IMG/VR virus record: IMGVR_UViG_2585427779_000013
Location: 1 to 52,997 of that record
Source of the DNA: a virus
Lineage: Duplodnaviria; Heunggongvirae; Uroviricota; Caudoviricetes
Reading direction: 5' to 3' (one strand)
Length of the DNA: 52,997 nt
Part shown: positions 3,977-50,938 of the stretch, one piece after another
How the letters are laid out: every line of letters starts with the position of its first letter
Position numbering within the stretch: position 1 is the stretch's first letter
Notes under the pieces: generated by a model
The model's database searches: none
Told to the model about the DNA's origin: nothing
Seen by the model: only the letters and a program-made list of their open reading frames with translations
Program-made: the position numbers and the translations under genes

Positions 3977-5095
3977 TTACAAAATGGAATATTCAGGGTA
4001 ATAAACAAAGCGCCCGATTTCTCCATGATCCGGGCTGTAAATAATCACCGCTGCCAGCCGCCGCGACCGCCAACCACCATTCGTTGAATAAGCGTCTTTG
4101 CCAGCTAACGTGCCGTGATACTCAACAACGCCTAACGATGACTCAATCAGCCGTTGATGATGCCAGTGCCCGCAATGAGCGTAAACCGCCGCAGACTTGC
4201 CGAAATCCTCACGCCAGTCAGATACGCAAGCAGACAATAAATTTTCCGGCTTTTTGATAGTGTGCCCGTGGTGGTAAGCAAGGAATGTTTTGCCGTACTG
4301 TGTGTGGTGGACGATAGCAGGGGACACATCAACCGTCACGCGCGGTTCATCTTCGTAAAAAGCCGCCAGCGCCGCGCGTAGCCAAATCATGCCTGACTGA
4401 TCGTGATTGCCTGATAACACCTGGATTTCAACATCCTTATGATTTAGTAACATCTTCCCGACCGCACGCCGGACCGACCGGATCGCCACGTAAACCAGTT
4501 TTGCGTAGCGTGAATCGCAATCCAGGACGTGATTGCTTGATGGCGTCACTGGTAACAGGCCGTCAGTATGAAGCACATCACCGCCGAGAAGTAAAACAGC
4601 CTTTTCAGACATTGGCGCAGCGCCTACCGCGTAGTCGAAGAAATCATTTAGCACACGTTCAGCGATCCCGGTGTCGTAGCTTTCGCCGCATTCAGCTTTA
4701 TGAGCAAGCGCCCCGATATGTAGATCGAATACCGGATAAAGGGCCAGGCTTTTTTGGAAATCAATTTCCGGCACTGGCACGGCCTCCGCGCGTGGCATAT
4801 CTTCCGTGAAAGCATCGCAAGCCGCTTGCATTAGCCTTTCCATTTCATCGCGATCACGGGCTGTTTTAATCCAGCGCATAATCACATTGCCATCCTTATC
4901 GACGAGCAAAGACTCACCATTGATGCCAAAACCAGGCGCGCGACGCGTGGATATTAAACCGCGCTTTGCCAATCGTGCGCCCAGCCGTTCGACGTTGCGT
5001 TTTGCCATGCCGTACTTTTCAGCGATCTGTTTATATGTCAGGCCGCTGTTATGTTCAGCGATTAGTTGTTCATCGCTGATCTTTCTTTGTGACAT
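3977..5095 (-). CDS. HTH domain fused to calcineurin-like metallophosphoesterase (372 aa)
   Basis: N-terminal HTH (LTYKQIAEKYGMAKRNVERL); C-terminal motifs GDVLH, GNHD, HHGH, HCGHWHH typical of metallophosphoesterases; occupies the helicase-loader position between initiator and DnaB. Confidence 0.7.
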   Translation of the reverse strand: MSQRKISDEQLIAEHNSGLTYKQIAEKYGMAKRNVERLGARLAKRGLISTRRAPGFGINGESLLVDKDGNVIMRWIKTARDRDEMERLMQAACDAFTEDMPRAEAVPVPEIDFQKSLALYPVFDLHIGALAHKAECGESYDTGIAERVLNDFFDYAVGAAPMSEKAVLLLGGDVLHTDGLLPVTPSSNHVLDCDSRYAKLVYVAIRSVRRAVGKMLLNHKDVEIQVLSGNHDQSGMIWLRAALAAFYEDEPRVTVDVSPAIVHHTQYGKTFLAYHHGHTIKKPENLLSACVSDWREDFGKSAAVYAHCGHWHHQRLIESSLGVVEYHGTLAGKDAYSTNGGWRSRRLAAVIIYSPDHGEIGRFVYYPEYSIL

Positions 5096-5256
5096 AACGT
5101 TACTTCCTCATGTTTACAGAATGTATATTTATTTTCCGTAAAACGCGCTACAACGCAAAATTCCACCGCGTAACCCATTTGTAAGGGTGCAGTGTCTTTT
5201 TTGCGCCAGAGGCGCTATCAGGTGGCTAATTTTCGATTTACAGACTGGTAGGTAGG

Positions 5257-5358
5257 TTATGGATTAACGAGAAGGTACAAACCGCCGAACAAAGCGACGT
5301 TAACAGCGATTACCGCAGCGATGGCAAAAGCCAGGGCGAAAACGTGTTTACCGTCCAT
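5257..5358 (-). CDS. small hydrophobic peptide (33 aa, MDGKHVFALAFAIAAVIAVNVALFGGLYLLVNP)
   Basis: ATG ORF with AGAGGA RBS 7 nt upstream; single predicted TM helix; not in ORF track (<60 aa). Confidence 0.3.
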   Translation of the reverse strand: MDGKHVFALAFAIAAVIAVNVALFGGLYLLVNP

Positions 5359-5490
5359 TTTAAAATCCTCTCTGTAACGCTCTATAACGAGCTAATCGCA
5401 AAAGGTAAGCAAGTGTAGCCCCATATGCGATTTAGCTCGCTGGTGAGGTTGTTTTGTGGGTAATTTTGGATTTTTGCGGATCGTGGTTGG

Positions 5491-6546: not shown

Positions 6547-6801
6547 TCATTCCTCCGGCAATGCAATGTCATAAATGTCGCCGTATTCGTCAGCGCGTTT
6601 AATGAATCCTTTGCGGATCAATGAATTTAATGCGTCAACAGCAGTATGCAGTGGCAGTTCGCACACTTTTGCGATCTCTTCGCGTGAAGCATGTGCGCGG
6701 CCTTTGTTGTCTGCCTTTTCTGCAAACGCAATTAAGACAAGTTTTTGGATCGGGCTGTTAAGTTTTACGTTCCATGCTTCATTCATCATGTGCATACTCA
6801 T
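6547..6801 (-). CDS. winged-helix/HTH DNA-binding protein in Cro/CII position (84 aa)
   Basis: HTH segment ASREEIAKVCELPLHTAVDALNSLIRKGFI; first gene of minus-strand operon divergent from repressor; GGAGA RBS. Confidence 0.65.
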   Translation of the reverse strand: MSMHMMNEAWNVKLNSPIQKLVLIAFAEKADNKGRAHASREEIAKVCELPLHTAVDALNSLIRKGFIKRADEYGDIYDIALPEE

Positions 6802-7107
6802 CTTGTTTTTCTCCTATGGTTAGAGTGAACGCGCGGGCGGGCATCCCATTAGCATTAGATAGCAGTGACTGACCGCTCAACAGATCCCGCCGTTGCGTGA
6901 TATTTGTTTTTCGCTTCGCAGCGACACCGGATTTTTAAAGAGCTTAAGGTAAGTGCCTTTTTGTGCCTTCCGTTATCTTTTTCCTTGCGTCTTTGCAAGT
7001 ATGGCCTTACCTTGTCTGCAAGTTTACAAAATGGAATTTTAAGATCAAGGCTTAAAATACACGTTTTGTGACTTGCATCAAACTTTTTGAGGTTATAGGG
7101 TAGCGAC
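6802..7107. promoter_or_regulatory. divergent immunity-region control region (candidate PR/PRM-like promoters and operators)
   Basis: 306-bp non-coding gap between divergent repressor and Cro-position gene; repeated half-site TGCAAGT at 6994-7000 and 7017-7023 and inverted as ACTTGCA at 7071-7077; inverted repeat AAGGTAAG/CTTACCTT; motif TTTACAAAATGG at 7023-7034. Confidence 0.5.
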
Positions 7108-7755
7108 ATGAAAACAAAATGGTATGACTTAGCAAAGCAGCTCATGCGGGCGCAGGGCATGAGTCAGGATTCACTCGCAGATCTCATGGGGATAACTAAA
7201 GGCGGCCTGTCACACTGGCTTAACGGTCGCCGCGAGCCAAATCTTGAAGATATTGCGCGGATTATGCGGGCGCTTGGGCGTCGTCAGTTCACTGTTACAC
7301 ATGATGGTATGGTCATTGATGATTCTGTTTCTAATACACTTCAGGCCGCACCGCCGCGTGATTTAGGTAGTTACCCGGTTATTGACTGGAAGGACACAGT
7401 AAACAATATGGATGACACAAGGCGATCAGCATTACCACACGTTACGACTAGCGTTATTTGTTCAGATGATAGTTACTGGCTGGTTGCCAAAGGTGAATCA
7501 ATGAACGCGCCGCAGGGGTTAAGCATCCCGGCGGGGACGATGATACTTGTTGACCCGCACGCGCCAGCTATTGACGGCAAACTGGTTATAGCCCAGCTTG
7601 AGGAAGGGCAGATACCGACGTTTAAACAGTTGATTATTGATGGAGGTCAAAGGCTTTTACGTTCGCTGAATCCGCTGTATCCGCCAATCCCTATGAATCC
7701 AGAATCAAAAATTATAGGCGTGGTGGTTGATGCGAAGATCGTAACCCTGCCATAA
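7108..7755 (+). CDS. CI-like phage repressor (HTH plus LexA/S24 peptidase domain)
   Basis: 215 aa; N-terminal XRE-type HTH; C-terminal S24 autoproteolysis motifs (AKGESM serine, TFKQL lysine). Confidence 0.85.
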   Translation: MKTKWYDLAKQLMRAQGMSQDSLADLMGITKGGLSHWLNGRREPNLEDIARIMRALGRRQFTVTHDGMVIDDSVSNTLQAAPPRDLGSYPVIDWKDTVNNMDDTRRSALPHVTTSVICSDDSYWLVAKGESMNAPQGLSIPAGTMILVDPHAPAIDGKLVIAQLEEGQIPTFKQLIIDGGQRLLRSLNPLYPPIPMNPESKIIGVVVDAKIVTLP

Positions 7756-7786: not shown

Positions 7787-7878
7787 CCTGGAAAACACCA
7801 AAACGTAAACAGAAAACGTTATTTATTATTTAAATATCAATGGTATATAAAATATTATAAAAAAGTATACAAAATGGA

Positions 7879-7907
7879 TTGACTCGGTGTTTTACGGGGC
7901 GTATATT
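7879..7907 (+). promoter_or_regulatory. candidate sigma70 promoter (PL-like)
   Basis: TTGACT (7879-7884), 17-bp spacer, TATATT (7902-7907); motif TATACAAAATGG ends 2 bp upstream of the -35. Confidence 0.45.
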
Positions 7908-9226: not shown

Positions 9227-9779
9227 TTACAGATCGGCGGAGGATATTTTAGAGGCTGTTAAGCCTTTATTGGAAGGCATTACGTTAACGCTTAATGATG
9301 AAGTGGTGTTAATTGGTGATCGTTATTACATTAAAGCAACAGCGATATTGAGCGATGGTGAAGATGAAATAACGGCTACTGCTTTCGCCCGCGAGGAAAA
9401 AGAACAAAAAGGCATGTCGTCTGGTCAGTTAACTGGCGCGACTTCTTCTTATGCTCGCAAATATTGTTTAAACGGCTTGTTCTGTATCGACGACGCAAAA
9501 GATCTGGATAGCGACGCTTACGCGAAGCAGACAGGCCAGCAGCCGCGACAACAGAAAAACCCACCAAAACAACAACCGCAGCAGAAGAAAGCGCCGCCAA
9601 ATCCTGATGAAGTATTAGCACGTTTCTGTGATGCAGCAGCGAAAGCGCAGGACGCTAACAAGCTGCGTGAAATATTTGGCAAATGCTGGAAATTACTACC
9701 GGAAGGATCGGAGCATCGAATCAAGGCAAAAGATGTTTATGACATCCGGGTAGCAGAGCTTAACGGGGAGATGGGTTAA
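9138..9779 (+). CDS. erf: Erf-family single-strand annealing recombinase
   Basis: GTG start with GGGG RBS; N-terminal region closely resembles P22 Erf (…YRSAEDILEAVKPLL…IGDRYYIKATA…TGATSSYARKYCLNGLF) by recall. Confidence 0.85.
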   Translation: MKKDLYKKLWLIQQQLKAPKSQRNSYGGYNYRSAEDILEAVKPLLEGITLTLNDEVVLIGDRYYIKATAILSDGEDEITATAFAREEKEQKGMSSGQLTGATSSYARKYCLNGLFCIDDAKDLDSDAYAKQTGQQPRQQKNPPKQQPQQKKAPPNPDEVLARFCDAAAKAQDANKLREIFGKCWKLLPEGSEHRIKAKDVYDIRVAELNGEMG

Positions 9780-10183
9780 TGAGTTTAAATTCAATCACGC
9801 TGGGCGGGAATATCGGTAATGATATGGAGGTTCGCTACACACAAAACGGGAAAGCGATTGGTAGTTTTCCGTTAGCTGTAACGAATGGCTACGGCGATAA
9901 TAAGCGGACAATGTGGGTCACTTGCCTGGTATTTGGTGAGCGTGCGGAAAAATTAGCGCCACATATCCGCAAGGGTGGAAAAATAGTGGTAAGCGGTCGC
10001 CTAGATGTTCGGCAATATGACCGGAACGACGGCACGAAGGGAACTGCGGTAGAAGTGGCGGTCAATGAGTTTGAGTTCATGGCTGTTAACCAGCAAGGCC
10101 AGCAGCAGAAAGCGCCGCCGCAGCAGCAGAATAATAACGGGAATAATGTTCCTCCTGACTTCGATGACGACATCCCGTTTTAA
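9779..10183 (+). CDS. ssb: single-stranded DNA-binding protein
   Basis: 134 aa; OB-fold SSB pattern, Gln/Pro-rich linker and acidic C-terminal tail DFDDDIPF. Confidence 0.9.
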   Translation: MSLNSITLGGNIGNDMEVRYTQNGKAIGSFPLAVTNGYGDNKRTMWVTCLVFGERAEKLAPHIRKGGKIVVSGRLDVRQYDRNDGTKGTAVEVAVNEFEFMAVNQQGQQQKAPPQQQNNNGNNVPPDFDDDIPF

Positions 10184-12361: not shown

Positions 12362-12459
12362 CCGAGTGATTCCGATTACATAAATATACATTATGTATTG
12401 TGATCGCATATCCGTTTTGTAAGCCAAAATCAAAAGGTTTACGGTGCGGAGGAAGCAAA

Positions 12460-14658: not shown

Positions 14659-15142
14659 CAGGTTATTGGCCTGCGTTTATGTCGCCGTTTTCGTGATCAT
14701 CAACCTTATTGTTAACCATTGCGGCCCGTGGGTGATTCCGATCACTACGGTAGCCGCTGTGTGTGTCAATATGATGATCCGCGACTTCCTGTTATATGAC
14801 GGCGGCCTGAAATGGTCGGCTACAACATGCGCCGCCGCTGGCGCAATCACTGTGCTGATAAATTACGACGCCGGAATGGTGGCGATCGCGTCATTCGTTG
14901 CTGTTGTTTCCGGTGCGCTTATTTCTGGCGGCGTTTACCGGGTTTTGCCTGGTGATTTTGATTCGAAACGCTGGCCTGCCAATATAGCGTCAGCCATTGG
15001 CGATGCGTTGATTTTTCCTACGCTATCGTTCATGGCGTTTATGCCGGAAATATCAGCGATGCAATTCATCTCAAAAATGGCAGCGGTAACGGTGATCACT
15101 ATCATCATGCGCCGCTATTTCACGTTTGAGGGCAGAAAATGA
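14639..15142 (+). CDS. polytopic membrane protein (167 aa), possibly transporter-like
   Basis: About 5 hydrophobic helices; sits between the two methyltransferase genes; family not recognised. Confidence 0.45.
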   Translation: MERVTIDRLLACVYVAVFVIINLIVNHCGPWVIPITTVAAVCVNMMIRDFLLYDGGLKWSATTCAAAGAITVLINYDAGMVAIASFVAVVSGALISGGVYRVLPGDFDSKRWPANIASAIGDALIFPTLSFMAFMPEISAMQFISKMAAVTVITIIMRRYFTFEGRK

Positions 15143-15897
15143 GCAGGGCTAAACATTGGTTAAATAATTGGCTTAGAAGTTGGGTGGTATGGTCGCTGTA
15201 CGACGGCAGCGGGTACGCCGTTAAAGACTGGGCGGAAGCAGGATATAAGTGCTATTGCTTCAACTATGACGGCGCAAATCACGGCGATTATGAAGGCGTT
15301 AAAATCATTCATCCAAATATTGAATACGTTAACGTATGGATTGACAGCCATTTCCTGGTGATGTTCTCCCCTGAATTGTCTGTTTATCCAGAGCCTGACA
15401 TTATCTTGGGCTTTCCGCCGTGCGATGATCTCGCTGTGTCTGGCGCTCGCTGGTTCGCTGATAAACGGAGAAAAGATCCTGACTTCCAGGTGAAGGCTGC
15501 GCATAATGCAAAACTGGTAGAAAAACTGGCGAATATGCATAACGTGCCGTGGATGGTGGAAAATCCGGTGGGCGCACTGTCAACGTTATGGCGTAAACCG
15601 GATTTTATCTTCAATCCTTGCGCTTACGGTGGCTACCTGCCGGAAGATGACAAACATCCTGCTTTCCCGGATGTTTACCCGGCGCGCGACGCGTATACAA
15701 AGAAAACTTGTATTTGGTGCGGTAACGGATTTAAGCAGCCGCTTTTCAGACCTGTAGATCTTAACTCTGGTGATAACCCGGGGTGGGCGAAAACAGGAGG
15801 CAGGACGAAACGAACAAAGATGATCCGCTCACTAACGCCGCGCGGCTTTGCCCGTGCTGTATTCCTGGCTAACCATGACCGCGTTTTACCGGACTGA
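15139..15897 (+). CDS. putative DNA cytosine-C5 methyltransferase-like protein
   Basis: 252 aa; PC motif (GFPPCDDLAVSG) and ENV-like motif (MVENPVGAL); divergent from canonical motifs, so assignment is tentative. Confidence 0.5.
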   Translation: MSRAKHWLNNWLRSWVVWSLYDGSGYAVKDWAEAGYKCYCFNYDGANHGDYEGVKIIHPNIEYVNVWIDSHFLVMFSPELSVYPEPDIILGFPPCDDLAVSGARWFADKRRKDPDFQVKAAHNAKLVEKLANMHNVPWMVENPVGALSTLWRKPDFIFNPCAYGGYLPEDDKHPAFPDVYPARDAYTKKTCIWCGNGFKQPLFRPVDLNSGDNPGWAKTGGRTKRTKMIRSLTPRGFARAVFLANHDRVLPD

Positions 15898-16056
15898 AGT
15901 TTACAAAATGGCGTCATTGCGTGATATGGATCACATAATGGCGCTTTTCGCCTTGTTCTGGTGTATCCATTTTGTATACTTCAAGCAAACAAAATGCTCT
16001 TTAAAAATCCGGCAGCGCTGAAATGCGTAGAAATCACCTGAAAAGGAGAGAGCATT

Positions 16057-16233
16057 ATGTCTTTTGATAATTACCAATGGCATGACGACTATGAACGAGA
16101 AAGCGTTATGCGTGCAATGTGCAATGTATGCAGCACGAAGAAAGGAGGCTGTAACGAGTGCAACGAATGCTTAGAACATTGGCTAAGGGCTGGACACGCC
16201 GAAAGGCTGAACGAAACAGAGAATCAAAAATAA
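16057..16233 (+). CDS. small Cys-rich protein (58 aa)
   Basis: AAGGAGAG RBS then ATG; MSFDNYQWHDDYERESVMRAMCNVCSTKKGGCNECNECLEHW; not in ORF track. Confidence 0.4.
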   Translation: MSFDNYQWHDDYERESVMRAMCNVCSTKKGGCNECNECLEHWLRAGHAERLNETENQK

Positions 16234-16247
16234 TCGGGGTGGTTTTT

Positions 16248-16853
16248 ATGCAAAACCCTAAAAAACCCATAAGACGCCGTTGCAAATGCTGCGGCGTTTT
16301 TTTTGAGCCTAAATATCACAATCAAACGTGGTGCAGCGATGAATGTCTGGAAGAACTGAAGTTTGACCAGCTATGCCGCGACCGTGAGAAGGCTATGAAG
16401 GCTATGGAGCGGAAGAAACGCCGTGATAGCCAGAGGGAAGAACGCAACCGGAAGCGTAAACAGTTAAATCCGCGTAGTTATTGGATCAAGCAAGTTCAAA
16501 ACGTATTTAACGCATATATTCGCGAACGTGATGCGCGGTTGCCGTGTATATCCTGCGGGACTTACTACGGTGAGCAATGCGGGTGGGATGCGGGCCATTA
16601 CAGGACGGTTGCCGCCGCAGGACACCTTCGCTTTAACGAGGATAATTGCCATAAACAATGCAGGCACTGCAACCAGACATTAGACGGAAACATAGGAGGG
16701 TATCGCCCGGCACTGATTCGAAAAATTGGCCTCGCCAGGGTGGTAGCGCTGGAAAACAACAATGATACGCATAAATGGACGATCGCAGAATGTAAGGAGC
16801 TAATAAACATCTATCAGGCTAAATTGGACGCTTTAAGGAGAAAGGCGGCATGA
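16248..16853 (+). CDS. ninG: NinG/Rap-family recombination protein
   Basis: Conserved Cys pattern and strong similarity to lambda NinG (RRRC…PRSYWIKQ…LPCISCGT…WDAGHYR…LRFNE…HKQC) by recall; start set at ATG 16248 (track ORF begins upstream). Confidence 0.8.
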   Translation: MQNPKKPIRRRCKCCGVFFEPKYHNQTWCSDECLEELKFDQLCRDREKAMKAMERKKRRDSQREERNRKRKQLNPRSYWIKQVQNVFNAYIRERDARLPCISCGTYYGEQCGWDAGHYRTVAAAGHLRFNEDNCHKQCRHCNQTLDGNIGGYRPALIRKIGLARVVALENNNDTHKWTIAECKELINIYQAKLDALRRKAA

Positions 16854-17257
16854 ATGAATATTCTTTTAGTCTGCCTTACCCGCCGTCGAATAACCGCTAT
16901 TACCGACATTCACGCGGTTTTCACTATATCAGCAAGGTTGGAAAAGAATACAGGGAACAGGTAAGAGACATCATCGAGCTATTAAATTTAAATATTAACC
17001 TACCTTGCCGACTGGCAATTGCAATTTACGCCGCGCCGCCGGATAACCGGATCAGAGATCTGGACAATATCCCTAAATGCCTTTTTGACAGCCTTACTTA
17101 TGCCGGATTCTGGAAGGATGACGGGCAAATCGACTCAATAAAAATTGTTCGCTGCCGGAAGGTAAAAGGCGGACGCTTGTTTATTAAGATCCGCGAACGC
17201 GGCGACCTACTACCGGATATTGACGAATACGCGACTAATATGTGGGGTGAGCAATGA
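16850..17257 (+). CDS. rusA: RusA Holliday junction resolvase
   Basis: 135 aa; SLPYPPSNNRYYRH…RDLDN…GGRL pattern matches E. coli RusA by recall. Confidence 0.85.
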   Translation: MNEYSFSLPYPPSNNRYYRHSRGFHYISKVGKEYREQVRDIIELLNLNINLPCRLAIAIYAAPPDNRIRDLDNIPKCLFDSLTYAGFWKDDGQIDSIKIVRCRKVKGGRLFIKIRERGDLLPDIDEYATNMWGEQ

Positions 17258-17436
17258 AAAACGAAGTTAAAGATCTGCAAATAGATATTCAGCGCGACGA
17301 GCGTGATTTAGAGACGGTCCGACAAATCCAGGCTTTCCACATGCGCGAATTACTTGCGCTGAAAGAGTTCGAAAGAAAGCTGGTGCAATCCATTTCTGAT
17401 CGTAAACGGCTGGCGGCACGTTATGAGGGCAAATAA
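17254..17436 (+). CDS. hypothetical coiled-coil protein (60 aa)
   Basis: ATGA-coupled ORF between rusA and Q-like gene. Confidence 0.4.
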   Translation: MKNEVKDLQIDIQRDERDLETVRQIQAFHMRELLALKEFERKLVQSISDRKRLAARYEGK

Positions 17437-18164
17437 TGAATTTAGAATCCATTCTAAAATTCCACTTTCCTAAATCACCGCGATTATCTGACGAAAGCCG
17501 GGGCACGTCCCCGGACGCTCTTAATACGACGGATGCGCTAACAGCTGCGGGTATGGCGCAATCGCGCGTAGAGCTTGGCTATAGCGCTTTTTTGGGAAAG
17601 ATGGAGCTATCACAAGCCGAAAAACATAAGGCCGTAGTTTTGCTTACAGAGCGTTTAAGGGCTATGGCAAAAGATTATGAATACGTTATGGAACTGGACG
17701 AGGCCAAACGCAATGATCTCATTATTCTTGTTGCCGTTTTCGCGTTTCGGGATTATTGCCAGAGTGCGGCGACCGAAAAAGTTTGCCCTAAGTGCGGCGG
17801 TAACGGGCTTTCACCACATCCATATTGTGAGTACGCATCGACAGTTTGCTCGCGGTGCGGCGGCAAAGGCTACGTTAAAAACCATTGCCAGCGGTGCAAG
17901 GGTCGTGGCGAAGTACCGGATAAAGCAGCCAGCGAGGCGGCGGAAATGCCAGTGTTCAAAACATGCCAGCACTGCGGCGGGCGCGGGTACTCGCGTTTCC
18001 CTGTAGATCTTGTCCGGCAGGCGGTTAATCAGCTTGTTTTCCCGGTAAGCCGATCAACATGGTGGAAGAAATACCGGGCTTTCTATGAAGACGCCATTGC
18101 TGAATTGTTCAAAGAAGAGGCGCGGGCTGACAACGAAATTAAACGAGTGACGCGGGGTGAATAA
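17436..18164 (+). CDS. putative late antiterminator (Q-like) with DnaJ-type zinc finger
   Basis: 242 aa; four CxxCxGxG repeats (CPKCGGNG, CSRCGGKG, CQRCKGRG, CQHCGGRG); located directly after ninG-rusA where lambdoid phages place Q. Confidence 0.45.
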   Translation: MNLESILKFHFPKSPRLSDESRGTSPDALNTTDALTAAGMAQSRVELGYSAFLGKMELSQAEKHKAVVLLTERLRAMAKDYEYVMELDEAKRNDLIILVAVFAFRDYCQSAATEKVCPKCGGNGLSPHPYCEYASTVCSRCGGKGYVKNHCQRCKGRGEVPDKAASEAAEMPVFKTCQHCGGRGYSRFPVDLVRQAVNQLVFPVSRSTWWKKYRAFYEDAIAELFKEEARADNEIKRVTRGE

Positions 18165-18364
18165 TGGATAAGCTGGAAATAAACGATCAGTTTGCCGTTA
18201 TCTTATTTGAAGATAAAACAGGCGGCGCATGGTGTAAGAAAGTCACTGGCGCGGAAGCGCGTTTAATATTGGGTATGGCAAGCGCGTTAAACGAAGGTGA
18301 ATTGCCAGCCGTGCCAATTGAGCCAGTTCATATTTACGGACGGAGTAACGACAATGAAGCCTAA
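18164..18364 (+). CDS. hypothetical protein (66 aa)
   Basis: ATGA-coupled ORF. Confidence 0.4.
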   Translation: MDKLEINDQFAVILFEDKTGGAWCKKVTGAEARLILGMASALNEGELPAVPIEPVHIYGRSNDNEA

Positions 18365-18623
18365 ATTAAAGGAACATATATTTGCAAAGCTGGTTAATGA
18401 CCTGACATTATCTGCGCGGTTGTGTCGTGATACGCAACAATTAAGGGCGTGGATAGCAAGGGATTTAAGAAAATATATTGAACCAGGCAGGCCAGGCGGA
18501 GAAATCACGATGGACGAAGCCATCAAGCGCCGTTCGGCTGAATGGTCAGTAAGTAATACAGGATTAACCGGATACATCGAAGGCTATAACGACTGTTTAC
18601 AGGATCATGGCGATGGCAAGTAA
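18354..18623 (+). CDS. hypothetical protein (89 aa)
   Basis: ATG 18354 with GGAG RBS. Confidence 0.45.
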   Translation: MKPKLKEHIFAKLVNDLTLSARLCRDTQQLRAWIARDLRKYIEPGRPGGEITMDEAIKRRSAEWSVSNTGLTGYIEGYNDCLQDHGDGK

Positions 18624-18921
18624 AGATCTGCATTTAAACCTGAAAGGAGAATACTTTTACGCCATCCGGGCGGGAAAGAAGGTGGAAGAATACAGGCTTT
18701 ACAATGACTATTGGCGTAAACGCCTGGAAGGGCGGGAATATGAACGCCTGATCATTAAGCTGGGGTATCCAGCCAGCCACGAAGCGCACCGGATTATAAA
18801 CCTGCCTTATTTCGGGTACGAAGTAAAAACTATCACGCATCCATTATTCGGCCCTGATCCTGTTAAGGTATTCGCAATTAAGTGTGATGTGAATTGGATG
18901 TTAAGGTGGGGTGAGCAATGA
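18607..18921 (+). CDS. hypothetical protein (104 aa)
   Basis: ORF in packed accessory cluster. Confidence 0.45.
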   Translation: MAMASKDLHLNLKGEYFYAIRAGKKVEEYRLYNDYWRKRLEGREYERLIIKLGYPASHEAHRIINLPYFGYEVKTITHPLFGPDPVKVFAIKCDVNWMLRWGEQ

Positions 18922-19127
18922 AAAAAGCTGGCCTGTCAATTAGCCGTGTATTGTGCGGCGACGAAAACGAGATCCGCATAGAAATTAAATTTAGCATGGG
19001 TAAAGAGATAATTCTTTACACGACACCTGAAAACATGACGCTGGCGCTTACTGGTAAATCTGAAACGCCGTGCGACGTCCGGTTACGCAATATTGAAATT
19101 AAGGAATTAAGGAAGGGTGAAAAATGA
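18918..19127 (+). CDS. hypothetical protein (69 aa)
   Basis: ATGA-coupled ORF. Confidence 0.4.
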   Translation: MKKAGLSISRVLCGDENEIRIEIKFSMGKEIILYTTPENMTLALTGKSETPCDVRLRNIEIKELRKGEK

Positions 19128-19339
19128 AAAGTAACCGTAAACGCCTGGTAAGGGCGTATGATAAAGCATTAAAGGCTTTTGACGACCTGCGACACAATAA
19201 GCGCCAGCGCCGCAAATGGGCGCGTATGCTTGTTTATGAGTGGCATTATTCTGATGCTTTTATGGAAAGTGCGCCGCTATTAACACAAGAACAAGCCGAC
19301 GAAGTAGCTAACGATAACGTTTATTATATGATGTGGTGA
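19124..19339 (+). CDS. hypothetical protein (71 aa)
   Basis: ATGA-coupled ORF. Confidence 0.4.
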   Translation: MKSNRKRLVRAYDKALKAFDDLRHNKRQRRKWARMLVYEWHYSDAFMESAPLLTQEQADEVANDNVYYMMW

Positions 19340-19343
19340 TAAT

Positions 19344-19709
19344 ATGCAAATAATCATTGATTACCTTTGCCACGCTGCAAATACGCTTTTCGGTTTTTAT
19401 CAGCAACCATTCCTGAAAGAATGGGACGAAATGCTTAATGACATCCTCGACAAAGGATTAATAATGGAATTCGGGGAGCTAACAATCAAATTTAATTACG
19501 AAGGCAAAGAATATGACATATGGGTAGGCAACAGATGGTATTCATACGGGCATATTTATTCAATTGGCGGTAAATACATTAAACGAAGTCAGGAATTTAG
19601 ACCGCGCTTCCGCACAATGCGACGACTGCATGACCTGCATATGAAGATATTTGGAGATCAGGAAGCACGGGAATTATTCAAAATTTACGGGGATAAATCA
19701 TGGAGCTAA
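19344..19709 (+). CDS. hypothetical protein (121 aa)
   Basis: ORF in packed cluster. Confidence 0.45.
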   Translation: MQIIIDYLCHAANTLFGFYQQPFLKEWDEMLNDILDKGLIMEFGELTIKFNYEGKEYDIWVGNRWYSYGHIYSIGGKYIKRSQEFRPRFRTMRRLHDLHMKIFGDQEARELFKIYGDKSWS

Positions 19710-19930
19710 AAATCTGGCAGGCTATCGACGTAGTTGATAATGAATTAACAATGTTTGCCACTGACGGAAAACGCGTGGTGATCGCCACATGGACGCACAA
19801 CCATGATGATATTGTTTTTCGTCGCAAAGCTGCGGAATGGCTTTTCTCTGATGAAGGCTACACGATGAACATTGCACAGCTTGCAAGAATGAAGGATGAA
19901 AAGCTGGTAGACAGCTACACAACTGCATAA
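19700..19930 (+). CDS. hypothetical small protein (76 aa), member of apparent paralog family
   Basis: Shares a loose pattern (G..Y… D.G..W.F) with neighbouring small ORFs. Confidence 0.4.
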   Translation: MELKIWQAIDVVDNELTMFATDGKRVVIATWTHNHDDIVFRRKAAEWLFSDEGYTMNIAQLARMKDEKLVDSYTTA

Positions 19931-19940
19931 CGGGGTAAAT

Positions 19941-20174
19941 ATGCGTATTTATGAACACAAGCGGGATAAAACCCGCTTTTTTGTTCGTGCTGGCGTGGCG
20001 TACCAGTATCACGACTGCGGATATATTGAGGCGCTTGCTTACGACATGGATTTCGAACAAGAAAAAGAATGGTTTGACTTTAAGATTTACCGTAAGCGCA
20101 AGCCAACGCGTGACGAACGACACGCTATCCGGGACTTTTTAATCAGCATAGACCGCTGGGAGGCAGACGAATGA
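19941..20174 (+). CDS. hypothetical small protein (77 aa)
   Basis: ORF in packed cluster. Confidence 0.4.
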   Translation: MRIYEHKRDKTRFFVRAGVAYQYHDCGYIEALAYDMDFEQEKEWFDFKIYRKRKPTRDERHAIRDFLISIDRWEADE

Positions 20175-20398
20175 AAGTTAAATTCTTGCACGATCACGGA
20201 TACCCGTCATTGAAACAGGTTGTTGGTAAGGTCGTTAATGTCGTTCATAGCGATGATATTACTTGCATGATTAATGGTGCTGATCTCATTGCTGCTGGTG
20301 CTGATGACCATTACATCAATCCGGCGTGGTCGTATACGTTCAGCATGGGCGATTTCGTCGGGGACAAGGGGCGCGGGCTTGAGATTGTAGAGGATTAA
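20171..20398 (+). CDS. hypothetical small protein (75 aa)
   Basis: ATGA-coupled ORF. Confidence 0.4.
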   Translation: MKVKFLHDHGYPSLKQVVGKVVNVVHSDDITCMINGADLIAAGADDHYINPAWSYTFSMGDFVGDKGRGLEIVED

Positions 20399-20402
20399 CG
20401 GT

Positions 20403-20618
20403 ATGGACGTTTACGAAGATCTCTACCTACAGACCAATAGCCGCACTTTTTATTTTCTGAAAAGCGGCGTCGTATATCGCAGCGACGACGGGGTGATAAT
20501 GAAAGAGTGGTTATTTAAGCGTAAAGACCTACTCGAAGATCTGGTTTTTGCCGGGATATTTCGTAAACGTCCGGCTAACCTGGAAGAAGAAATGTTGATC
20601 GACGAGGTGTTAAAATGA
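20403..20618 (+). CDS. hypothetical small protein (71 aa)
   Basis: ORF in packed cluster. Confidence 0.4.
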   Translation: MDVYEDLYLQTNSRTFYFLKSGVVYRSDDGVIMKEWLFKRKDLLEDLVFAGIFRKRPANLEEEMLIDEVLK

Positions 20619-20860
20619 AAGTGAATTATTTCAGGGCAAAAGACAAGGCAACAGGAAAGCGGGTGGCTATCCTGGTTAATGAAGCAAATTATATGTTTGT
20701 TCTCCAGCCGTGGTGCATGGCTGACTATAACGATGATTATCGTCGTCACGCTGCGCGGCGGGCGGTCGGGATGAAAGGCTGGCAACCGCGCGACATGCTT
20801 AATTATTGCGACTGGAATCTGATAGCAAAATACACGGTAGATTATAAAGGGGTTTTCTGA
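20615..20860 (+). CDS. hypothetical small protein (81 aa)
   Basis: ATGA-coupled ORF. Confidence 0.4.
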   Translation: MKVNYFRAKDKATGKRVAILVNEANYMFVLQPWCMADYNDDYRRHAARRAVGMKGWQPRDMLNYCDWNLIAKYTVDYKGVF

Positions 20861-20862
20861 TT

Positions 20863-21078
20863 ATGTTTGCAAGATGCGTTTATTCTGACACTACATGCTT
20901 TACTACTGGCGAACTATATAGCGTTGATCTTCTTAATGGGTGCAAGCGCGGCGCGGGCGGTATTCATTATGTAAAAGATAATGATGGCGATGCGTGGCAA
21001 TTTTACGGCGATTACGCAAAAGGGTTTGTTAAGGGTAGTTTTGATAATCGTGTGATGGCGCGCTTTGTTAAGTGGTGA
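20863..21078 (+). CDS. hypothetical small protein (71 aa), paralog-like
   Basis: FTTGELYSV…DGDAWQFYGDY pattern recurs in neighbours. Confidence 0.4.
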   Translation: MFARCVYSDTTCFTTGELYSVDLLNGCKRGAGGIHYVKDNDGDAWQFYGDYAKGFVKGSFDNRVMARFVKW

Positions 21079-21087
21079 GGTGGTGTT

Positions 21088-21327
21088 ATGAGACGGAACC
21101 ATAGATACCAGTGCACATACTCACGATGCAGCGCGTTTTTTAAGAATGGCAAGATCTACGAAGTCGGCGCGGCATTGGTTGACGCAAAGGATCAGGAATA
21201 TATTCACGCCATTACTGACGACCAGGGCCAGTTATGGCGATTTTATAAGATGGGGTGTGGCACGGCGCTTGTTTATGCGCGTGCTGGTGGTGGTGCTTTT
21301 GCTGCGTTTTCGTATGTAGGGGTATGA
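21088..21327 (+). CDS. hypothetical small protein (79 aa), paralog-like
   Basis: FKNGKIYEV…DQGQLWRFYKMG pattern. Confidence 0.4.
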   Translation: MRRNHRYQCTYSRCSAFFKNGKIYEVGAALVDAKDQEYIHAITDDQGQLWRFYKMGCGTALVYARAGGGAFAAFSYVGV

Positions 21328-21548
21328 AAATGATTTTAACGTGTAACGAATCGGAATTGGGCTGTTTTGAGGAAGGCGTACAGTATACGGCTGAAAAACC
21401 GATGGGGTTGTCGCCTAAATTTCCGTTTATCGTCGTGACTGACACTTACGGTCACTTATGGTATGCAGAGCCGCTAGGCGGTATTGGTCGTTATGTTGTC
21501 CGTAGTTCGGATGGGGCGATGAAGGTTACTTTTACGGAAGAAGCATAA
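21324..21548 (+). CDS. hypothetical small protein (74 aa), paralog-like
   Basis: ATG overlapping upstream stop; FEEGVQYTA…YGHLWYAE pattern. Confidence 0.4.
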   Translation: MKMILTCNESELGCFEEGVQYTAEKPMGLSPKFPFIVVTDTYGHLWYAEPLGGIGRYVVRSSDGAMKVTFTEEA

Positions 21549-21646
21549 ATGTGATCTACCCTTCAAAGTTTACAGAATGGCATTGCTCTGGCGGTGCCAT
21601 TTTGTTATAAAGAAGCTGAAGAGAGAACGATGCGGAGGGTAGAAAA

Positions 21647-21919
21647 ATGAAACGCTGGATTAACGAAGAAACAGAGGCCCGCTTCAATGCAATTTGGGAT
21701 CTGATTGAAAAAGAGGACGGCGTTTCTAGTCCCTACCTGAACAATCTTGAGTTCCACTATGTAGAAGCGATGAACGCAGAGCATGACCACGAAGGCGGTG
21801 CCGATGAATTCGCTAAAAAATACGGCTTCGATGATGCAAACCATATGATTAACAACGTGGTGATGCAGGCAGAGGAAGACTACGAATGCAAATCACTTGA
21901 ATTCGCACGCATGGCATAA
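21647..21919 (+). CDS. hypothetical acidic protein (90 aa)
   Basis: GGAGGG RBS; preceded by motif pair and a 20-codon upstream ORF. Confidence 0.45.
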   Translation: MKRWINEETEARFNAIWDLIEKEDGVSSPYLNNLEFHYVEAMNAEHDHEGGADEFAKKYGFDDANHMINNVVMQAEEDYECKSLEFARMA

Positions 21920-21929
21920 GGGGGAAAAC

Positions 21930-22070
21930 ATGAACGCTAACGCTAAATATCCGGCCTGGGTCTTTGAACTATACGCCCGCTATTTTGAAGAACTGGCACC
22001 AGGTGAAGAAGCATTAAGCATTGACGAATACGCGGAGTGTTTAGGATTCAAGGGGGACGAAGAAGAATAA
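21930..22070 (+). CDS. small acidic protein (46 aa)
   Basis: AGGGGGAAA RBS then ATG; not in track. Confidence 0.35.
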   Translation: MNANAKYPAWVFELYARYFEELAPGEEALSIDEYAECLGFKGDEEE

Positions 22071-22113
22071 AACACGGGGCCGGATGGCCCCATCAAATCA
22101 GAAGGGTGTAATT

Positions 22114-22413
22114 ATGAAAAGCGCTAAATTCATTGCGTGCTGTTTTGTTGAAGTCCCTAACGATGATGTTTTCTGCAATTATGAATTTAAAGACAGTTTA
22201 GGCAGATCTCATGTTGTTGTTGGTAAGCGCGGCGACTGGTTATATATCACTGATGGAGACAGGATCTTCACTAAAAACCAGTTGTTAAGAATAAAGGCAG
22301 AAAATGATGAAATACCAGTAGGTAATATGGGGATTATGAATTATCACGCTGGTTTATCGTTAAAGCACGATGCGGTAAATAAAGCGCGTAGCTTACCTGG
22401 TGCGGAGTTTTAA
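22114..22413 (+). CDS. hypothetical protein (99 aa)
   Basis: ATG 22114 with GAAGGGTG RBS. Confidence 0.45.
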   Translation: MKSAKFIACCFVEVPNDDVFCNYEFKDSLGRSHVVVGKRGDWLYITDGDRIFTKNQLLRIKAENDEIPVGNMGIMNYHAGLSLKHDAVNKARSLPGAEF

Positions 22414-22436
22414 TTTATTACGAAGGGGAATAATAA

Positions 22437-22760
22437 ATGTCTAAATTTATCAGCGTTAAGGTTTTTCGTGGCAATTTTCCAGAAGATAAAGAAATTGGAC
22501 AATTCGCAGGTGAACGTGGAGTATGTTTCCGTGTAGCTACTGAAGACGATGCGCACGTTAAATGCTTTCACGTATCTGAACCGCCTTTTAATGCAGAACA
22601 TCTTGAAGACCTGAATAGAATTAAAAGCCTTATTTTTGCCTATCTGGCGTTCCCTGGCATAGCTAATGCTGATGTGGGATTGGTTGGCGCTGAACTGGTT
22701 GCGGAATACAAAATGACTGAAGGTGTAACAGGGGGAATTGACATTGAGCGCATCAAGTAA
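22437..22760 (+). CDS. hypothetical protein (107 aa)
   Basis: ORF in packed cluster. Confidence 0.45.
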   Translation: MSKFISVKVFRGNFPEDKEIGQFAGERGVCFRVATEDDAHVKCFHVSEPPFNAEHLEDLNRIKSLIFAYLAFPGIANADVGLVGAELVAEYKMTEGVTGGIDIERIK

Positions 22761-22995
22761 GCTATACAAGATCAGGTGTAAAGGCGAATACCCTGGCTTT
22801 ACGATTGGTTGCGAATACCTGGGCCACATTGGGTACGGCCCTTTCGGTGAGTTGGGGATGAGCACGCTGGACGATGACGGCGACAGCCGGACGCTTGATC
22901 TTGATTCTGATGATTTCGAATACATCCCGCCAGTCACTTACCGTGACGTCGATGATTTCCTGGCTGAACAAGAAGACGATGAAGAGGATGATTAA
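22738..22995 (+). CDS. hypothetical protein with acidic C-terminus (85 aa)
   Basis: ORF; C-terminal EQEDDEEDD. Confidence 0.4.
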   Translation: MTLSASSKLYKIRCKGEYPGFTIGCEYLGHIGYGPFGELGMSTLDDDGDSRTLDLDSDDFEYIPPVTYRDVDDFLAEQEDDEEDD

Positions 22996-22997
22996 CT

Positions 22998-23138
22998 ATG
23001 GATGACGAATACGTTAATAATTTTATTGTTATGTTTCTTAGTGAAAACTGGCGCATGTTTGAACATTATTGTTTTGAGCGCGGGGAAAATGCTGAAGAAA
23101 TATATCAATATTTAGGCGGGGAGAAAGAGGATGATTGA
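22998..23138 (+). CDS. small protein (46 aa)
   Basis: ATG ORF not in track; overlaps next start. Confidence 0.3.
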   Translation: MDDEYVNNFIVMFLSENWRMFEHYCFERGENAEEIYQYLGGEKEDD

Positions 23139-38084: not shown

Positions 38085-38744
38085 TTAATTCCAGTTGCAA
38101 GCGTTTTTTACTTTGTCGATGTGGTTATAAAGACCATCAATGTTAAACACTGCTTTCTCAATGTCGCCAGCTTCCGGCACTACTTCAATGATGAATTGTT
38201 TTTCGTTAACCATTTTTTTAATCATTGGGATGGCTTTTTTGCCGTCCCATAATCCAAGAGCTTTATAATTAGTTGACCGTCCCCACTCAGTAGCTACAGC
38301 TTTGTGAACGCCGATCCGGTAGTTAATATAAGTAGTGTCCCCGGCGTCAGTTACATGGTGTGACCATGCTACGAACATTTTTGTTTTATTACCCTGGCAA
38401 GCGATTGTTAATACCGGTTTATTCTTATCCTGTGCCTTCAGTGTCGGGAAAGCATCAAGACTTCCGCTGAATTGTTCTGCTTTCACAAAAAGGAATACGT
38501 TTTTTGCGTCCTGCATATCATCTTTTCTTTCAACTACAAGCCACTGTTTACCAGCATTTTCTTTTTCTAACTGTGCATCGTATGCGGCTTGTTTTGCTTG
38601 TTGTTCTGCAAGCCATTTAGCATTTTTCTCTGCTAATGCTTGTTGTTCTTGATTGGTCACTATAGGCGCTTTTTCATTATCCTCATTGCAACCAACCAGA
38701 CCCAATACCGCCGCAATCATTGCCACTTTTGCTAACTGTTTCAT
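38085..38744 (-). CDS. moron lipoprotein (219 aa)
   Basis: Signal peptide with lipobox MKQLAKVAMIAAVLGLVGC; coiled-coil rich N-terminal region. Confidence 0.6.
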   Translation of the reverse strand: MKQLAKVAMIAAVLGLVGCNEDNEKAPIVTNQEQQALAEKNAKWLAEQQAKQAAYDAQLEKENAGKQWLVVERKDDMQDAKNVFLFVKAEQFSGSLDAFPTLKAQDKNKPVLTIACQGNKTKMFVAWSHHVTDAGDTTYINYRIGVHKAVATEWGRSTNYKALGLWDGKKAIPMIKKMVNEKQFIIEVVPEAGDIEKAVFNIDGLYNHIDKVKNACNWN

Positions 38745-39004
38745 AACCCACCACGCTTAGTTTTTATTTTTAAGTGATTTTAACATTTCTTCAATGAAAT
38801 CCGCATAGCGTTCATGTTCGTTGGGACGGTAGTTTACGTTTTTCATTTTCTTGTCCTCTTTTGCTTCCTCCGGTTTATCCGGTCCTTTTAAATCCCTTTA
38901 CTCTATCCATTTCCTTTAGCCTCTTTATACAAAATGTATTCGTTGAAGTGAAGCCATTTTGTATAAAATAGAGACATAGATCACATCTTGTATGAGGTTA
39001 AATC

Positions 39005-41964: not shown

Positions 41965-42219
41965 TCACTTATGCACCCCTTTGACTCCACAGTGCCTGTT
42001 ATATTCCAGATGATCGATAATTAACCAGACTTTTAGGTCTTCGCTAAACAGCCTCCAGTCAGGGGTGATGTCGAATTTAAAGCCATAACCATCACGTAAC
42101 TTTTTGGGGCGCGCCTCTTTCTTCAAAAATGCTTTAAGCAGTTCCCTCCCTTTCTTGATAATCCTGTCTTGTGCGTTTTTCTGTACTTTCAGGTTTTTAT
42201 CAATCGCTACCAGTTTCAT
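41965..42219 (-). CDS. moron basic small protein (84 aa)
   Basis: Reverse-strand ORF. Confidence 0.45.
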   Translation of the reverse strand: MKLVAIDKNLKVQKNAQDRIIKKGRELLKAFLKKEARPKKLRDGYGFKFDITPDWRLFSEDLKVWLIIDHLEYNRHCGVKGVHK

Positions 42220-42236
42220 AACTCACCCCATCATCC

Positions 42237-42392
42237 TTAGTTGAGTGCCTTCAGGAAGAAATCACGGTATTCATCTTCTTTTGCATTCATCATGAATTGA
42301 CCGTATTTGAATGCGTCGTCGAAGCCCTTAACGATTGCTATTTCCACTTGTTCGAATGCGTTGTTCAGCATTACCACTACATAGCGTTTCAT
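42237..42392 (-). CDS. moron small protein (51 aa; possible N-terminal extension to 42467)
   Basis: ATG at 42392 has GGAGG RBS; an in-frame upstream ATG at 42467 lies inside the TTTACAAAATGG motif. Confidence 0.45.
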   Translation of the reverse strand: MKRYVVVMLNNAFEQVEIAIVKGFDDAFKYGQFMMNAKEDEYRDFFLKALN

Positions 42393-42560
42393 TTTTGGCC
42401 TCCTTCGTTGGTACTGCTTTTCTTCTTGCTTTCTATATACATCTTGTTGCGTACTATGTGAAGCCATTTTGTAAACTAGCTATAATCATTGTGATTAAGA
42501 TCTCATTTTTCGCGTAGAGGCGCGTAAAGATATATACAAAATGTAACTTATGGGGGTTTT

Positions 42561-43978: not shown

Positions 43979-44107
43979 CTCACACCTCCGCGCCATTTTG
44001 TTAACTGTGCTTCCGTTTGAGTAAAATATACATATTGTATAAACCGCGATCAATCCATTTTGGTATGATTTAGCGTGACGCAGATCACAAAATCAGAAGG
44101 TGAGAAA

Positions 44108-50482: not shown

Positions 50483-50515
50483 AAATAACCCCGCTTTGCG
50501 CGGGGTTTTCTTTTA
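50483..50515. terminator. bidirectional terminator after J
   Basis: AAAAATAA-CCCCGC-TTTGC-GCGGGG-TTTTCTTTT. Confidence 0.75.
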
Positions 50516-50761
50516 GTAGTTAGCTACACAATTCGACGGGCTACCGATGCGGCGCATATTGTGATCTAGTTCATGACACCATTGACCAGTATATGGAAGT
50601 TTTTCAGTGTCATAGACAAGATGACCATTAGCATCATAGACAATTTCTTGAGGAATTACTCCGCTATTTGGCAGGTTGTGCAATGCAGCATCTTTGTCAA
50701 CAGCACAACCAGTAAGAGCAACAGCCGCAGCGAATAATACCACTTTGAGCATGTTTTTCAT
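50513..50761 (-). CDS. small lipoprotein, candidate receptor-blocking superinfection exclusion protein (Cor/Llp-like)
   Basis: 82 aa; signal peptide with lipobox MKNMLKVVLFAAAVALTGC; reverse strand between J and tail fibre gene. Confidence 0.55.
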   Translation of the reverse strand: MKNMLKVVLFAAAVALTGCAVDKDAALHNLPNSGVIPQEIVYDANGHLVYDTEKLPYTGQWCHELDHNMRRIGSPSNCVANY

Positions 50762-50938
50762 TTTTGAATCCCCATTCTCGTTAGCTCGCCAGGTTCATCC
50801 GGTGGCTTAAATATCCGACAAAACAACATTTCGTATATTGATATAAATCAATAAATACATTTTGTATAAGCCAGAAATGTAACACAGATCACAAAATGGT
50901 AAAATTACCAGGTTAATTAACATAATGGAGTCATTGCG

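Follow-up and report, generated by a model that had tools for sequence, protein, structure and literature searches.

A repeated 13-bp motif in a temperate coliphage of the mEpimmI group: short reading frames judged non-coding and putative operators of a lambda CI-like repressor

Two sites and the reading frames they contain

The DNA analyzed here, called the window, comprises positions 1 to 52,997 of the IMG/VR virus record IMGVR_UViG_2585427779_000013 and belongs to a temperate coliphage of the mEpimmI group, the relatives of mEp021. A megablast search with positions 15000-23000 as query matched only mEp044, mEp010, mEp554, mEp013, mEp515, mEp021 and MagusPhagus, at 88-91% identity. The group was described in 2025 as temperate siphoviruses possessing a CI-like repressor, Rep021, shown to confer immunity, an N-like antiterminator, Gp17, which acts at nutL, nutR1 and nutR2, and also a Q-like protein (PMC11893012). 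The subject of this study is a 13-bp motif repeated across the window, together with two short open reading frames (ORFs) that contain pairs of it, ORF1 at site 1 and ORF2 at site 2. From sequence comparison, the motif probably represents the operator of the repressor Rep encoded in the same window.

Both ORFs are present as the initial annotation had reported them, and the pattern MAL..W.C.HFV is common to their translations in the sequence and the ORF list. ORF1 (15908-16021, +) runs from the ATG at 15908 to a TGA at 16019-16021 and reads MASLRDMDHIMALFALFWCIHFVYFKQTKCSLKIRQR, with the 37 aa originally given. ORF2 (21577-21642, +) runs from the ATG at 21577 to a TAG at 21640-21642 and reads MALLWRCHFVIKKLKRERCGG, for which 21 aa are counted rather than the 20 first stated; its stop codon is indeed separated by only four bases (AAAA) from the ATG of the gene at 21647. 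The likeness between the two peptides is wholly accounted for at the DNA level. The ATGGC encoding Met-Ala derives from ACAAAATGGC, and HFV derives from C-CAT-TTT-GT in an inverted copy of the motif. The copies are spaced by 25 bp at site 2 and by 34 bp at site 1, a difference of nine bases that leaves them in frame at both sites. The short ORFs result from the presence in the putative operator of ATGGC on one strand and C-CAT-TTT-GT on the other, at fixed in-frame spacings.

Three copies of the motif are found at site 1. Copy a (TTACAAAATGGCG, 15901-15913, +), scoring 18.8 bits with a position-weight matrix (PWM), is invariant in 35 distinct relatives and supplies the ATG of ORF1. Copy b (TCACATAATGGCG, 15931-15943, +; 13.3 bits) is conserved, carries a second ATG (MALF...) and lies 34 bp from copy c (ATCCATTTTGTAT on the plus strand, 15965-15977, −; 19.3 bits), which is invariant, has one mismatch to ATAC-N5-GTAT and supplies HFV. 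Copy c sits in the spacer, beside the -10 hexamer, of a predicted sigma-70 promoter that we designate PR2 (15953-15980, +; score 8.4), composed of the -35 TTGTTC (15953-15958), a 16-nt spacer and the -10 TATACT (15975-15980), with the transcription start site (TSS) predicted at ~15987. TTGTT and TATACT are conserved among relatives while the 5' part of the spacer varies, and the layout is as in PL.

Downstream of PR2 lies nutR2 (15996-16027, +), consisting of a boxA GCTCTTTAAAAA (15996-16007) and a boxB-like hairpin CGCTGAAATGCG (16016-16027), both invariant in relatives. The element thus has the parts of a nut site, a boxA-like GCTCTTTAA and, after it, a short hairpin whose loop is A-rich, 3' of a predicted early promoter. 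In the published description nutR2 is placed downstream of the gp32 cytosine methyltransferase gene (PMC11893012); this gene corresponds to 15139-15897 in the window, so the location matches. ORF1 overlaps the putative operators, the predicted promoter and nutR2. Its 3' third is the boxA/boxB element, as known from the lambda nut sites and from nutR2 of mEp021, and its stop codon lies inside the boxB loop. The window differs from the published picture of nutR2 in having a predicted promoter with putative operators 8-40 nt upstream of boxA, which is unmentioned there (PMC11893012).

Site 2 contains a single pair. Copy a (TTACAGAATGGCA, 21570-21582, +; 16.5 bits) is conserved in 26 variants, supplies the ATG of ORF2 and lies 1-2 nt 5' of the -35 of a predicted promoter (21583-21611, +; score 9.5), which is made up of TTGCTC, a 17-nt spacer and TGt-TATAAA, with the TSS predicted at ~21618. 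Copy b (TGCCATTTTGTTA on the plus strand, 21595-21607, −; 17.8 bits) supplies HFV, lies in the spacer and overlaps the extended -10; no relative has an indel between it and copy a.

Reading frames are broken where the motif is kept

The initial annotation had taken the motif pairs to encode homologous peptides, perhaps serving as leader peptides or for translational coupling into the downstream gene, and had named a frame comparison among related phages beforehand as the test that would refute this. For site 1, 45 loci around NinG were collected from IMG/VR, and the 35 distinct versions of the site were aligned. ORF1 is broken in eight of them, by a premature stop in seven and by a 1-nt deletion that shifts the frame in one, with all three motif copies intact. 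This alignment shows little or no change in the motif copies, the -10 and the boxA/boxB block, and free variation in the intervening stretches; the variable block of ORF1 reads WC, CR, TR, AR, GG and others, with no synonymous bias.

At site 2 the first ten codons of ORF2, which are its motif part, are open in 27 of 27 versions, and the spacing of the copies never changes. The substitutions seen in this part (L/F, W/R and R/Q, at codon positions 1 and 2) are non-synonymous. The 3' half of the ORF carries indels of 1-3 nt among relatives, its length ranges from 17 to more than 28 aa, and the stop is not reached in 9 of the 27 versions. A third pair of the same geometry, at 38929/38954, reads ATG TAT TCG TTG AAG TGA, and the peptide frame is closed by this TGA. 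A more distant phage, whose Rep is 55% identical (the cousin phage hereafter), retains all three copies at site 1, with a TAA directly after the first motif ATG; its second ORF translates the third copy in a different frame, giving P-F-C instead of HFV.

No Shine-Dalgarno (GGAG-like) sequence precedes the ATGs at 15908, 15938 or 21577, and both predicted TSSs fall 3' of the ATGs of ORF1 and ORF2. Neither peptide has a PHROG match; the neighbouring 58-aa and 90-aa genes match PHROG profiles over their full length, the 90-aa gene downstream of ORF2 from residue 1. The two ORFs share with bacterial upstream ORFs and leader peptides the feature of a short frame, ORF2, ending just before a gene start, but they differ from these in lacking a ribosome-binding site, conservation of frame and purifying selection on the peptide. 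The readings as leader peptide or coupling device are unsupported because the frames are broken in relatives with the nucleotide motif kept, and the alternative offered in the initial annotation, a by-product of a conserved DNA element, is borne out. Translation of these ORFs is favoured by their openness in the window, the nearness of ORF2 to the gene at 21647, the intact motif part of ORF2 and the choices of gene callers, but we regard it as the least likely of all the readings weighed here, hardly to be credited. ORF1 and ORF2 are judged non-coding.

The motif ATGs at 42467 and 43996 (minus strand) were also said to be in frame with the downstream starts that follow GGAGG. This is correct for the window. 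As gene starts they do not hold: just 6 of 26 versions have an open, in-frame extension at 42467, and the PHROG profiles for both genes begin at the Met after the ribosome-binding site. Such motif ATGs are therefore not to be taken as gene starts.

The equivalent of ORF1 has been deposited as a hypothetical protein in at least two relatives, as MagusPhagus CDS0096 (L001, 7780-7893) and as mEp554_44 (L203, 1131-1244). These entries are probably gene-caller artefacts over the putative operators and nutR2, and should not stand as hypothetical proteins.

Frequency, form and conservation of the motif

With up to two mismatches, TTTACAAAATGGC has 11 matches in the window against 3.2 expected, a number that none of 100 shuffles reached. 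The 9-mer CCATTTTGT occurs exactly 12 times against 1.0 expected, again with no shuffle in 100 reaching this count. The motif is a 13-bp pseudo-palindrome, (A/T)TAC-AAAAT-GG(A/C)N, a variant of ATAC-N5-GTAT, and perfect copies of the latter occur at 38927, 44028, 50855 and 12386. The dyad is centred on the middle base of the core, with 65 symmetric matches out of 136; random positions give 33 +/- 5 (maximum 46). A PWM scan of the window at a threshold of at least 13 bits returned 23 copies at about 11 promoter regions, almost all situated in non-coding gaps where operons begin. The motif was not singled out by a maximal-order Markov k-mer test, its sub-words being enriched too.

In phylogenetic footprints all 11 regions retain the motif, and at most of them the flanking sequence is more variable. 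Its density is 2-3 per 10 kb in mEpimmI loci versus 0.07 in distant lambda-like tail loci. The exact inverted pair is found in IMG/VR almost only in the mEpimmI group; two matches outside it (L175 and L195) proved to be unrelated chance palindromes. A full-text literature search for the motif strings returned only primers in unrelated papers.

The copies are mostly arranged in pairs of recurrent spacing. Centre-to-centre distances are 25 bp for 21570/21595, 38927/38952, 44028/44053 and 7867/7892, 24 bp for 12386/12410, and 33-34 bp for 7024/7058, 15931/15965, 50855/50889 and 7834/7867. Two other descriptions of the motif, as an asymmetric element linked to the -10 and as a 434-like ACAA-N6-TTGT site, were dropped after the dyad centre and the ATAC-N5-GTAT relatives had been seen.

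Stoperators were also considered. In cluster A mycobacteriophages, these are asymmetric 13-bp sites (L5 gp71), and they resemble the present case in that a 13-bp motif recurs, with about 20 copies in the short gaps between genes along both arms of the genome. Stoperators, however, have a single orientation with respect to transcription and block elongation inside operons, away from promoters, whereas the sites in the window coincide with promoter elements, are aligned with the -35 and -10 hexamers, face either way and form spaced pairs. This class was rejected.

Rep and the operator family around its homologues

Rep (7108-7755, +) combines an HTH_3 and a Peptidase_S24 domain (Pfam). It matches the lambda repressor structure 3bdn with E = 1e-19 across both domains, including the cooperativity domain, and by sequence is a true homologue of lambda CI. 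The control regions on either side of rep carry the motif, PL at 7024 and 7058 and PR at 7834, 7867 and 7892. Homologues of Rep were found in four other backgrounds (L253, L254, L092 and L090), with a divergent cro-like gene beside rep. In these, matches to ATAC-N5-GTAT with at most one mismatch were counted within 490 bp of rep and compared with all matches and with a uniform expectation. The matches near rep numbered 6 of 11 in L253 (0.5 expected), 4 of 9 in L254 (0.21 expected), 4 of 10 in L092 (0.36 expected) and 3 of 8 in L090 (0.27 expected). They cluster in the cro|rep switch and just 3' of the rep terminator, at spacings of 25-27 and 33 bp.

The Rep of the cousin phage has a recognition helix identical to that of Rep in the window, GITKGGLSHWLNGRREPN, and the CCATTTTGT form of the motif is kept in this phage, at the switch, at PR and at the equivalent of site 1. 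Rep homologues with other recognition helices are accompanied by variant half-sites, without CCATTTTGT, in a helix-operator comparison that covers four clades only, whose backgrounds also differ. A scan with the Rep alignment over one genome per species gave no relative, and a repeat of the Rep alignment search in IMG/VR gave nothing new.

The start of Rep itself deserves comment. The mEp021 record (L202, 1719-2315) begins the repressor 16 codons later, as a protein of 199 aa, leaving out the region at 7108-7155 of the window. The N-terminal MKTKWYDLAK is conserved at the protein level, with synonymous differences, in the 38%-identical homologue from L092, and therefore the longer Rep of 215 aa is probably the real form. 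Codons 2-5 of rep also match the operator motif (7112-7124).

Register of the motif with predicted promoters

Eight promoters fit one plan, in which a motif copy is followed by 1-2 nt, the -35, 9 nt, an inverted motif and the -10. PL and the site-1 promoter follow the same plan with ten extra bases. In several regions conserved -35 and -10 hexamers enclose a spacer that varies, the signature of real promoters.

The switch at PL (7024-7070) has a perfect copy at 7024-7036 in the spacer of the leftward promoter TTGATC-16-TAAACT, whose TSS is predicted at ~7014, and a degenerate inverted copy at 7058-7070; both are inside 27-nt inverted arms (7017-7043 and 7051-7077). The boxA of nutL follows PL at 6927-6943 (−). 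The right control region, OR/PR (7834-7907, +), has its three sites at 7834, 7867 and 7892, spaced by 33 and 25 bp, conserved and within one mismatch of ATAC-N5-GTAT. The third overlaps the -10 of TTGACT (7879-7884)-17-TATATT (7902-7907), which scores 14.2, has its predicted TSS at ~7914 and is associated with nutR1. Three phased A-tracts, TATAAAAT, TATAAAAA and TATACAAAA, about 10 bp apart, are located directly 5' of the PR -35 (7846-7878) and resemble the curved upstream DNA of strong phage promoters. A word common to the initially transcribed sequences of PL and PR, GCAGACAAGGTAAGG, is not above chance elsewhere.

Alternatively, the motif may be a protein-binding or promoter element that has nothing to do with Rep, such as an UP-like element for the C-terminal domain of the RNA polymerase alpha subunit, a site for a Q-type antiterminator between -35 and -10, or a site for a host factor. 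Six promoters carry a copy 1-2 nt 5' of the -35, centred at about -42, where the proximal subsites of UP elements and class II activators act, and the copy at PR continues the run of phased A-tracts. The window encodes a Q protein (PF03589, 17436-18164). Lambda Q binds in the spacer of PR', and many copies here occupy spacers. UP elements, however, need neither an invariant C, nor TGG, nor a dyad, all of which are seen in the motif, and for about half of the copies there is no plausible promoter that would put them at -42. Q is not known to act at PL, at PR or in the rep switch, all of which carry the motif. A host factor is made less likely by the lack of the motif in distant lambda-like tails that share these hosts. 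Finally, the operator family flanks rep homologues in unrelated prophages, one of which is a remnant of little more than rep. We consider a binding partner other than Rep rather unlikely, though deserving of more weight than the further alternatives treated in this paper.

A putative dispersed immunity regulon

The explanation we favour, and hold to be likely on the comparative evidence, is that the motif copies are operators of Rep and form a dispersed immunity regulon. The forward and inverted motifs would be copies of one 13-bp operator. Placed on sigma-70 promoters, one copy would abut the -35 (centre at about -42) and one would lie in the spacer or on the -10 (centre at about -17), the paired copies being 25 bp apart, or 34 bp with one helical turn added.

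In phage lambda the operators OR and OL are tripartite, CI dimers cooperate across ~24 bp, and OR2 and OR3 lie at -42 and about -19 of PRM. Since the paired sites in the window are arranged as OR2/OR3 are with respect to PRM and OR2/OR1 with respect to PR, cooperatively bound Rep dimers would shut these promoters in the lysogen. The likeness to lambda extends to a repressor homologous in both domains, to pseudo-palindromic sites with one half better conserved, to control regions with two or three sites each, separated by 24-27 or 33-34 bp and located at about -42 and -17, and to a rep mRNA predicted to be almost leaderless. The differences are that the operator is of 13 bp instead of 17 bp and of another sequence, and is present at about 11 loci instead of two; that rep of the window is oriented in the direction of PR and possesses a terminator of its own; and that no Cro gene is evident in the window. 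The first gene of the leftward early operon (6547-6801, −) encodes an 84-aa, O-like N-terminal domain of a replication initiator, not Cro. The cousin phage (L250) has a 75-aa HTH_3 Cro-like gene at the corresponding position, 9649-9876.

The C1 repressor of phage P1 offers a second comparison, having many dispersed, asymmetric 17-bp operators, some as inverted pairs. As there, one immunity repressor would control many scattered promoters through asymmetric-looking sites, some of them inverted pairs. C1 is, however, unrelated to S24 repressors of the CI/LexA type, and its operators differ in sequence and length.

Beyond PL and PR, the operators would guard a third early promoter with nutR2 at site 1, the promoter before gene 21647 at site 2, and, for every leftward cargo slot of the tail operon, the divergent promoter region at its right-hand end. 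This suggests that mEpimmI immunity reaches a third nut-linked early promoter and the junctions of cargo and tail genes, wider than the two-operator scheme of lambda. The analysis shows the motif statistics and conservation, the geometry, ORF disruption among relatives and the clustering of the operator family around rep homologues; that Rep is the binder, where transcription starts and that the promoters are repressed is inferred, the first of these from comparative anatomy.

Several observations weigh against this explanation. In the window phage about half of the half-sites are GG(A/C)N and not GTAT, a strong asymmetry for a dimer. The enrichment test on ATAC-N5-GTAT is partly circular because the pattern was recognized after inspecting the relatives, and co-occurrence does not single out Rep because all motif-bearing phages also share other regulators, Q and an N-like protein. 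The sigma-70 PWM scan is permissive, with 1744 hits at a score of at least 5.5 in the window; a stricter consensus promoter scan found nothing at site 2, and the copies at 3977, 8546 and 43991 are at no convincing promoter. The pair at site 2 is a strong hairpin and may have a role in RNA. The published description of the group mentions no operators, promoters or repeated motif (PMC11893012).

An RNA role for the inverted pairs in general would make them hairpins that either serve as intrinsic terminators in both directions or affect processing or stability, the A- and U-tracts being ACAAAA and UUUUGU. Folding energies are -23.8 kcal/mol (z = -4.2) for site 2, -24.1 for the PL region and -16.9 for the pair 38929/38954. 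At site 2, 99.7% of cells pair on the plus strand and one-sided changes are all wobble-compatible, and the stem GGCAUUGC/GCGGUGCC is followed by AUUUUGUU. No compensatory double change was found there, a terminator scan found nothing at this site, and a stem ending at a U-run is seen in only 3-4 of 18 copies, most of the copies outside site 2 having no stem. Most pairs are located at divergent gene starts, where terminators are unexpected, and hairpins leave unexplained the single copies and the pairs 62-72 bp apart. As the main function of the pairs, hairpins are thus quite improbable. The site-2 pair with its intervening bases (21569-21611) forms a 15-bp hairpin with several G-U pairs in plus-strand RNA, which the mEp554 record (L203, 5833-5878) annotates as the Rho-independent terminator T10 (ARNold).

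If the motif copies are operators of Rep, the regulation is ordinary in kind and involves no new principle. No earlier description of mEpimmI operators was found in the literature searched or read, and the present analysis provides the group with a consensus for the putative operator and maps at least 23 sites, distributed over about 11 promoter regions. We put forward only tentatively, as a possibility that may well prove wrong, the fuller scheme in which a CI-type repressor would run a genome-wide regulon of about 23 operators, a symmetric operator-promoter module would close each leftward cargo slot of the tail operon, and the palindrome at site 2 might double as an RNA hairpin or terminator in read-through transcripts. 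In that case a cassette inserted in a slot, and the late genes downstream, would automatically fall under immunity control.

Cargo slots and the remaining motif regions

Four leftward cargo blocks lie in the tail region; their products are a VasI-like protein, a ParE-like toxin pair, a small ANT-like protein and a lipoprotein. The first (38085-38744) is a 219-aa VasI-like, type VI secretion-associated protein. At 41965-42392, inside the tail operon, an 84-aa ParE-like toxin follows a 51-aa partner, likely as a toxin-antitoxin pair. The 82-aa lipoprotein (50513-50761) is probably an Lpp-type exclusion protein, like those tested in the published study (PMC11893012).

Motif copies are associated with these blocks as follows. 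The pair ATACAAAATGTAT / AGCCATTTTGTAT (38927-38964) is arranged head-to-head upstream of the tape-measure gene, between the divergent predicted promoters TTCGTT-17-TATAAA (+) and TTCACT-17-TATAAA (−). Copies at 42462-42474 and 42534-42546 lie between the leftward ParE-like toxin operon and a minor tail gene; the leftward promoter TTCACA-17-TATATA in this region has a copy at about -42, with conserved hexamers and a varying spacer. In the region 43991-44065 the copies are at 43991, 44028 (ATACATATTGTAT, with perfect ends) and 44053; sites occupy the -10 and about -42 of the leftward promoter TTGATC-17-TATATT. The copies at 50855 (ATACATTTTGTAT), 50889 and 50918 (50855-50930) are conserved and lie between the leftward lipoprotein gene and the tail fibre gene.

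Three cargo slots of the tail operon vary from 685 to 1709 bp in length among 31 relatives, and the motif pair located ~95-135 nt upstream of the next late gene is retained in nearly all of them. The motif junctions might accordingly be read as recombination linkers, used mainly for the exchange of cargo cassettes and compatible with an operator role. Linkers would leave unexplained the copies at PL, at PR, in the rep switch and at site 1, the exact register with -35 and -10, and the presence of the operator family beside rep in other prophages. We hold it very improbable that this is their main function.

The leftward replication operon encodes an O-like N-terminal domain, a Lin1244_N domain, a 372-aa helix-turn-helix (HTH) protein, DnaB and NinB (Pfam). 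A single conserved copy (3977-3989, +) is found between the genes for the 372-aa HTH protein and the DnaB helicase. The pair ATACATTATGTAT / ATCCGTTTTGTAA, 24 bp apart, occupies an intergenic gap of the early right operon (12386-12422, −). Two further high-scoring copies are TTACAGAATGTAT (5114-5126), in the 5096-5490 gap of the replication operon, and ATACAAAATGACT (22706-22718), at the end of the gene 22437-22760. A compact palindrome, CTATTTTGTACAAAATCC (1012-1031), made of two overlapping motif-like halves, is placed between the NinB gene and the 217-aa gene at 231-884.

Searches with Rfam at gathering thresholds and for tRNAs had no matches anywhere in the window, and a lambda-like late promoter with a terminator before the lysis genes was looked for with nothing convincing found. 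A second enriched word, AGATCACA, which contains GATC, occurs 7 times against 1.24 expected, and no shuffle reached 7. Its copies are at 21550-21557 (−), 38978-38985 (+), 44082-44089 (+) and 50886-50893 (+), and also at 5887, 25241 and 50560; four of them are located about 12-25 nt 3' of motif-bearing promoters.

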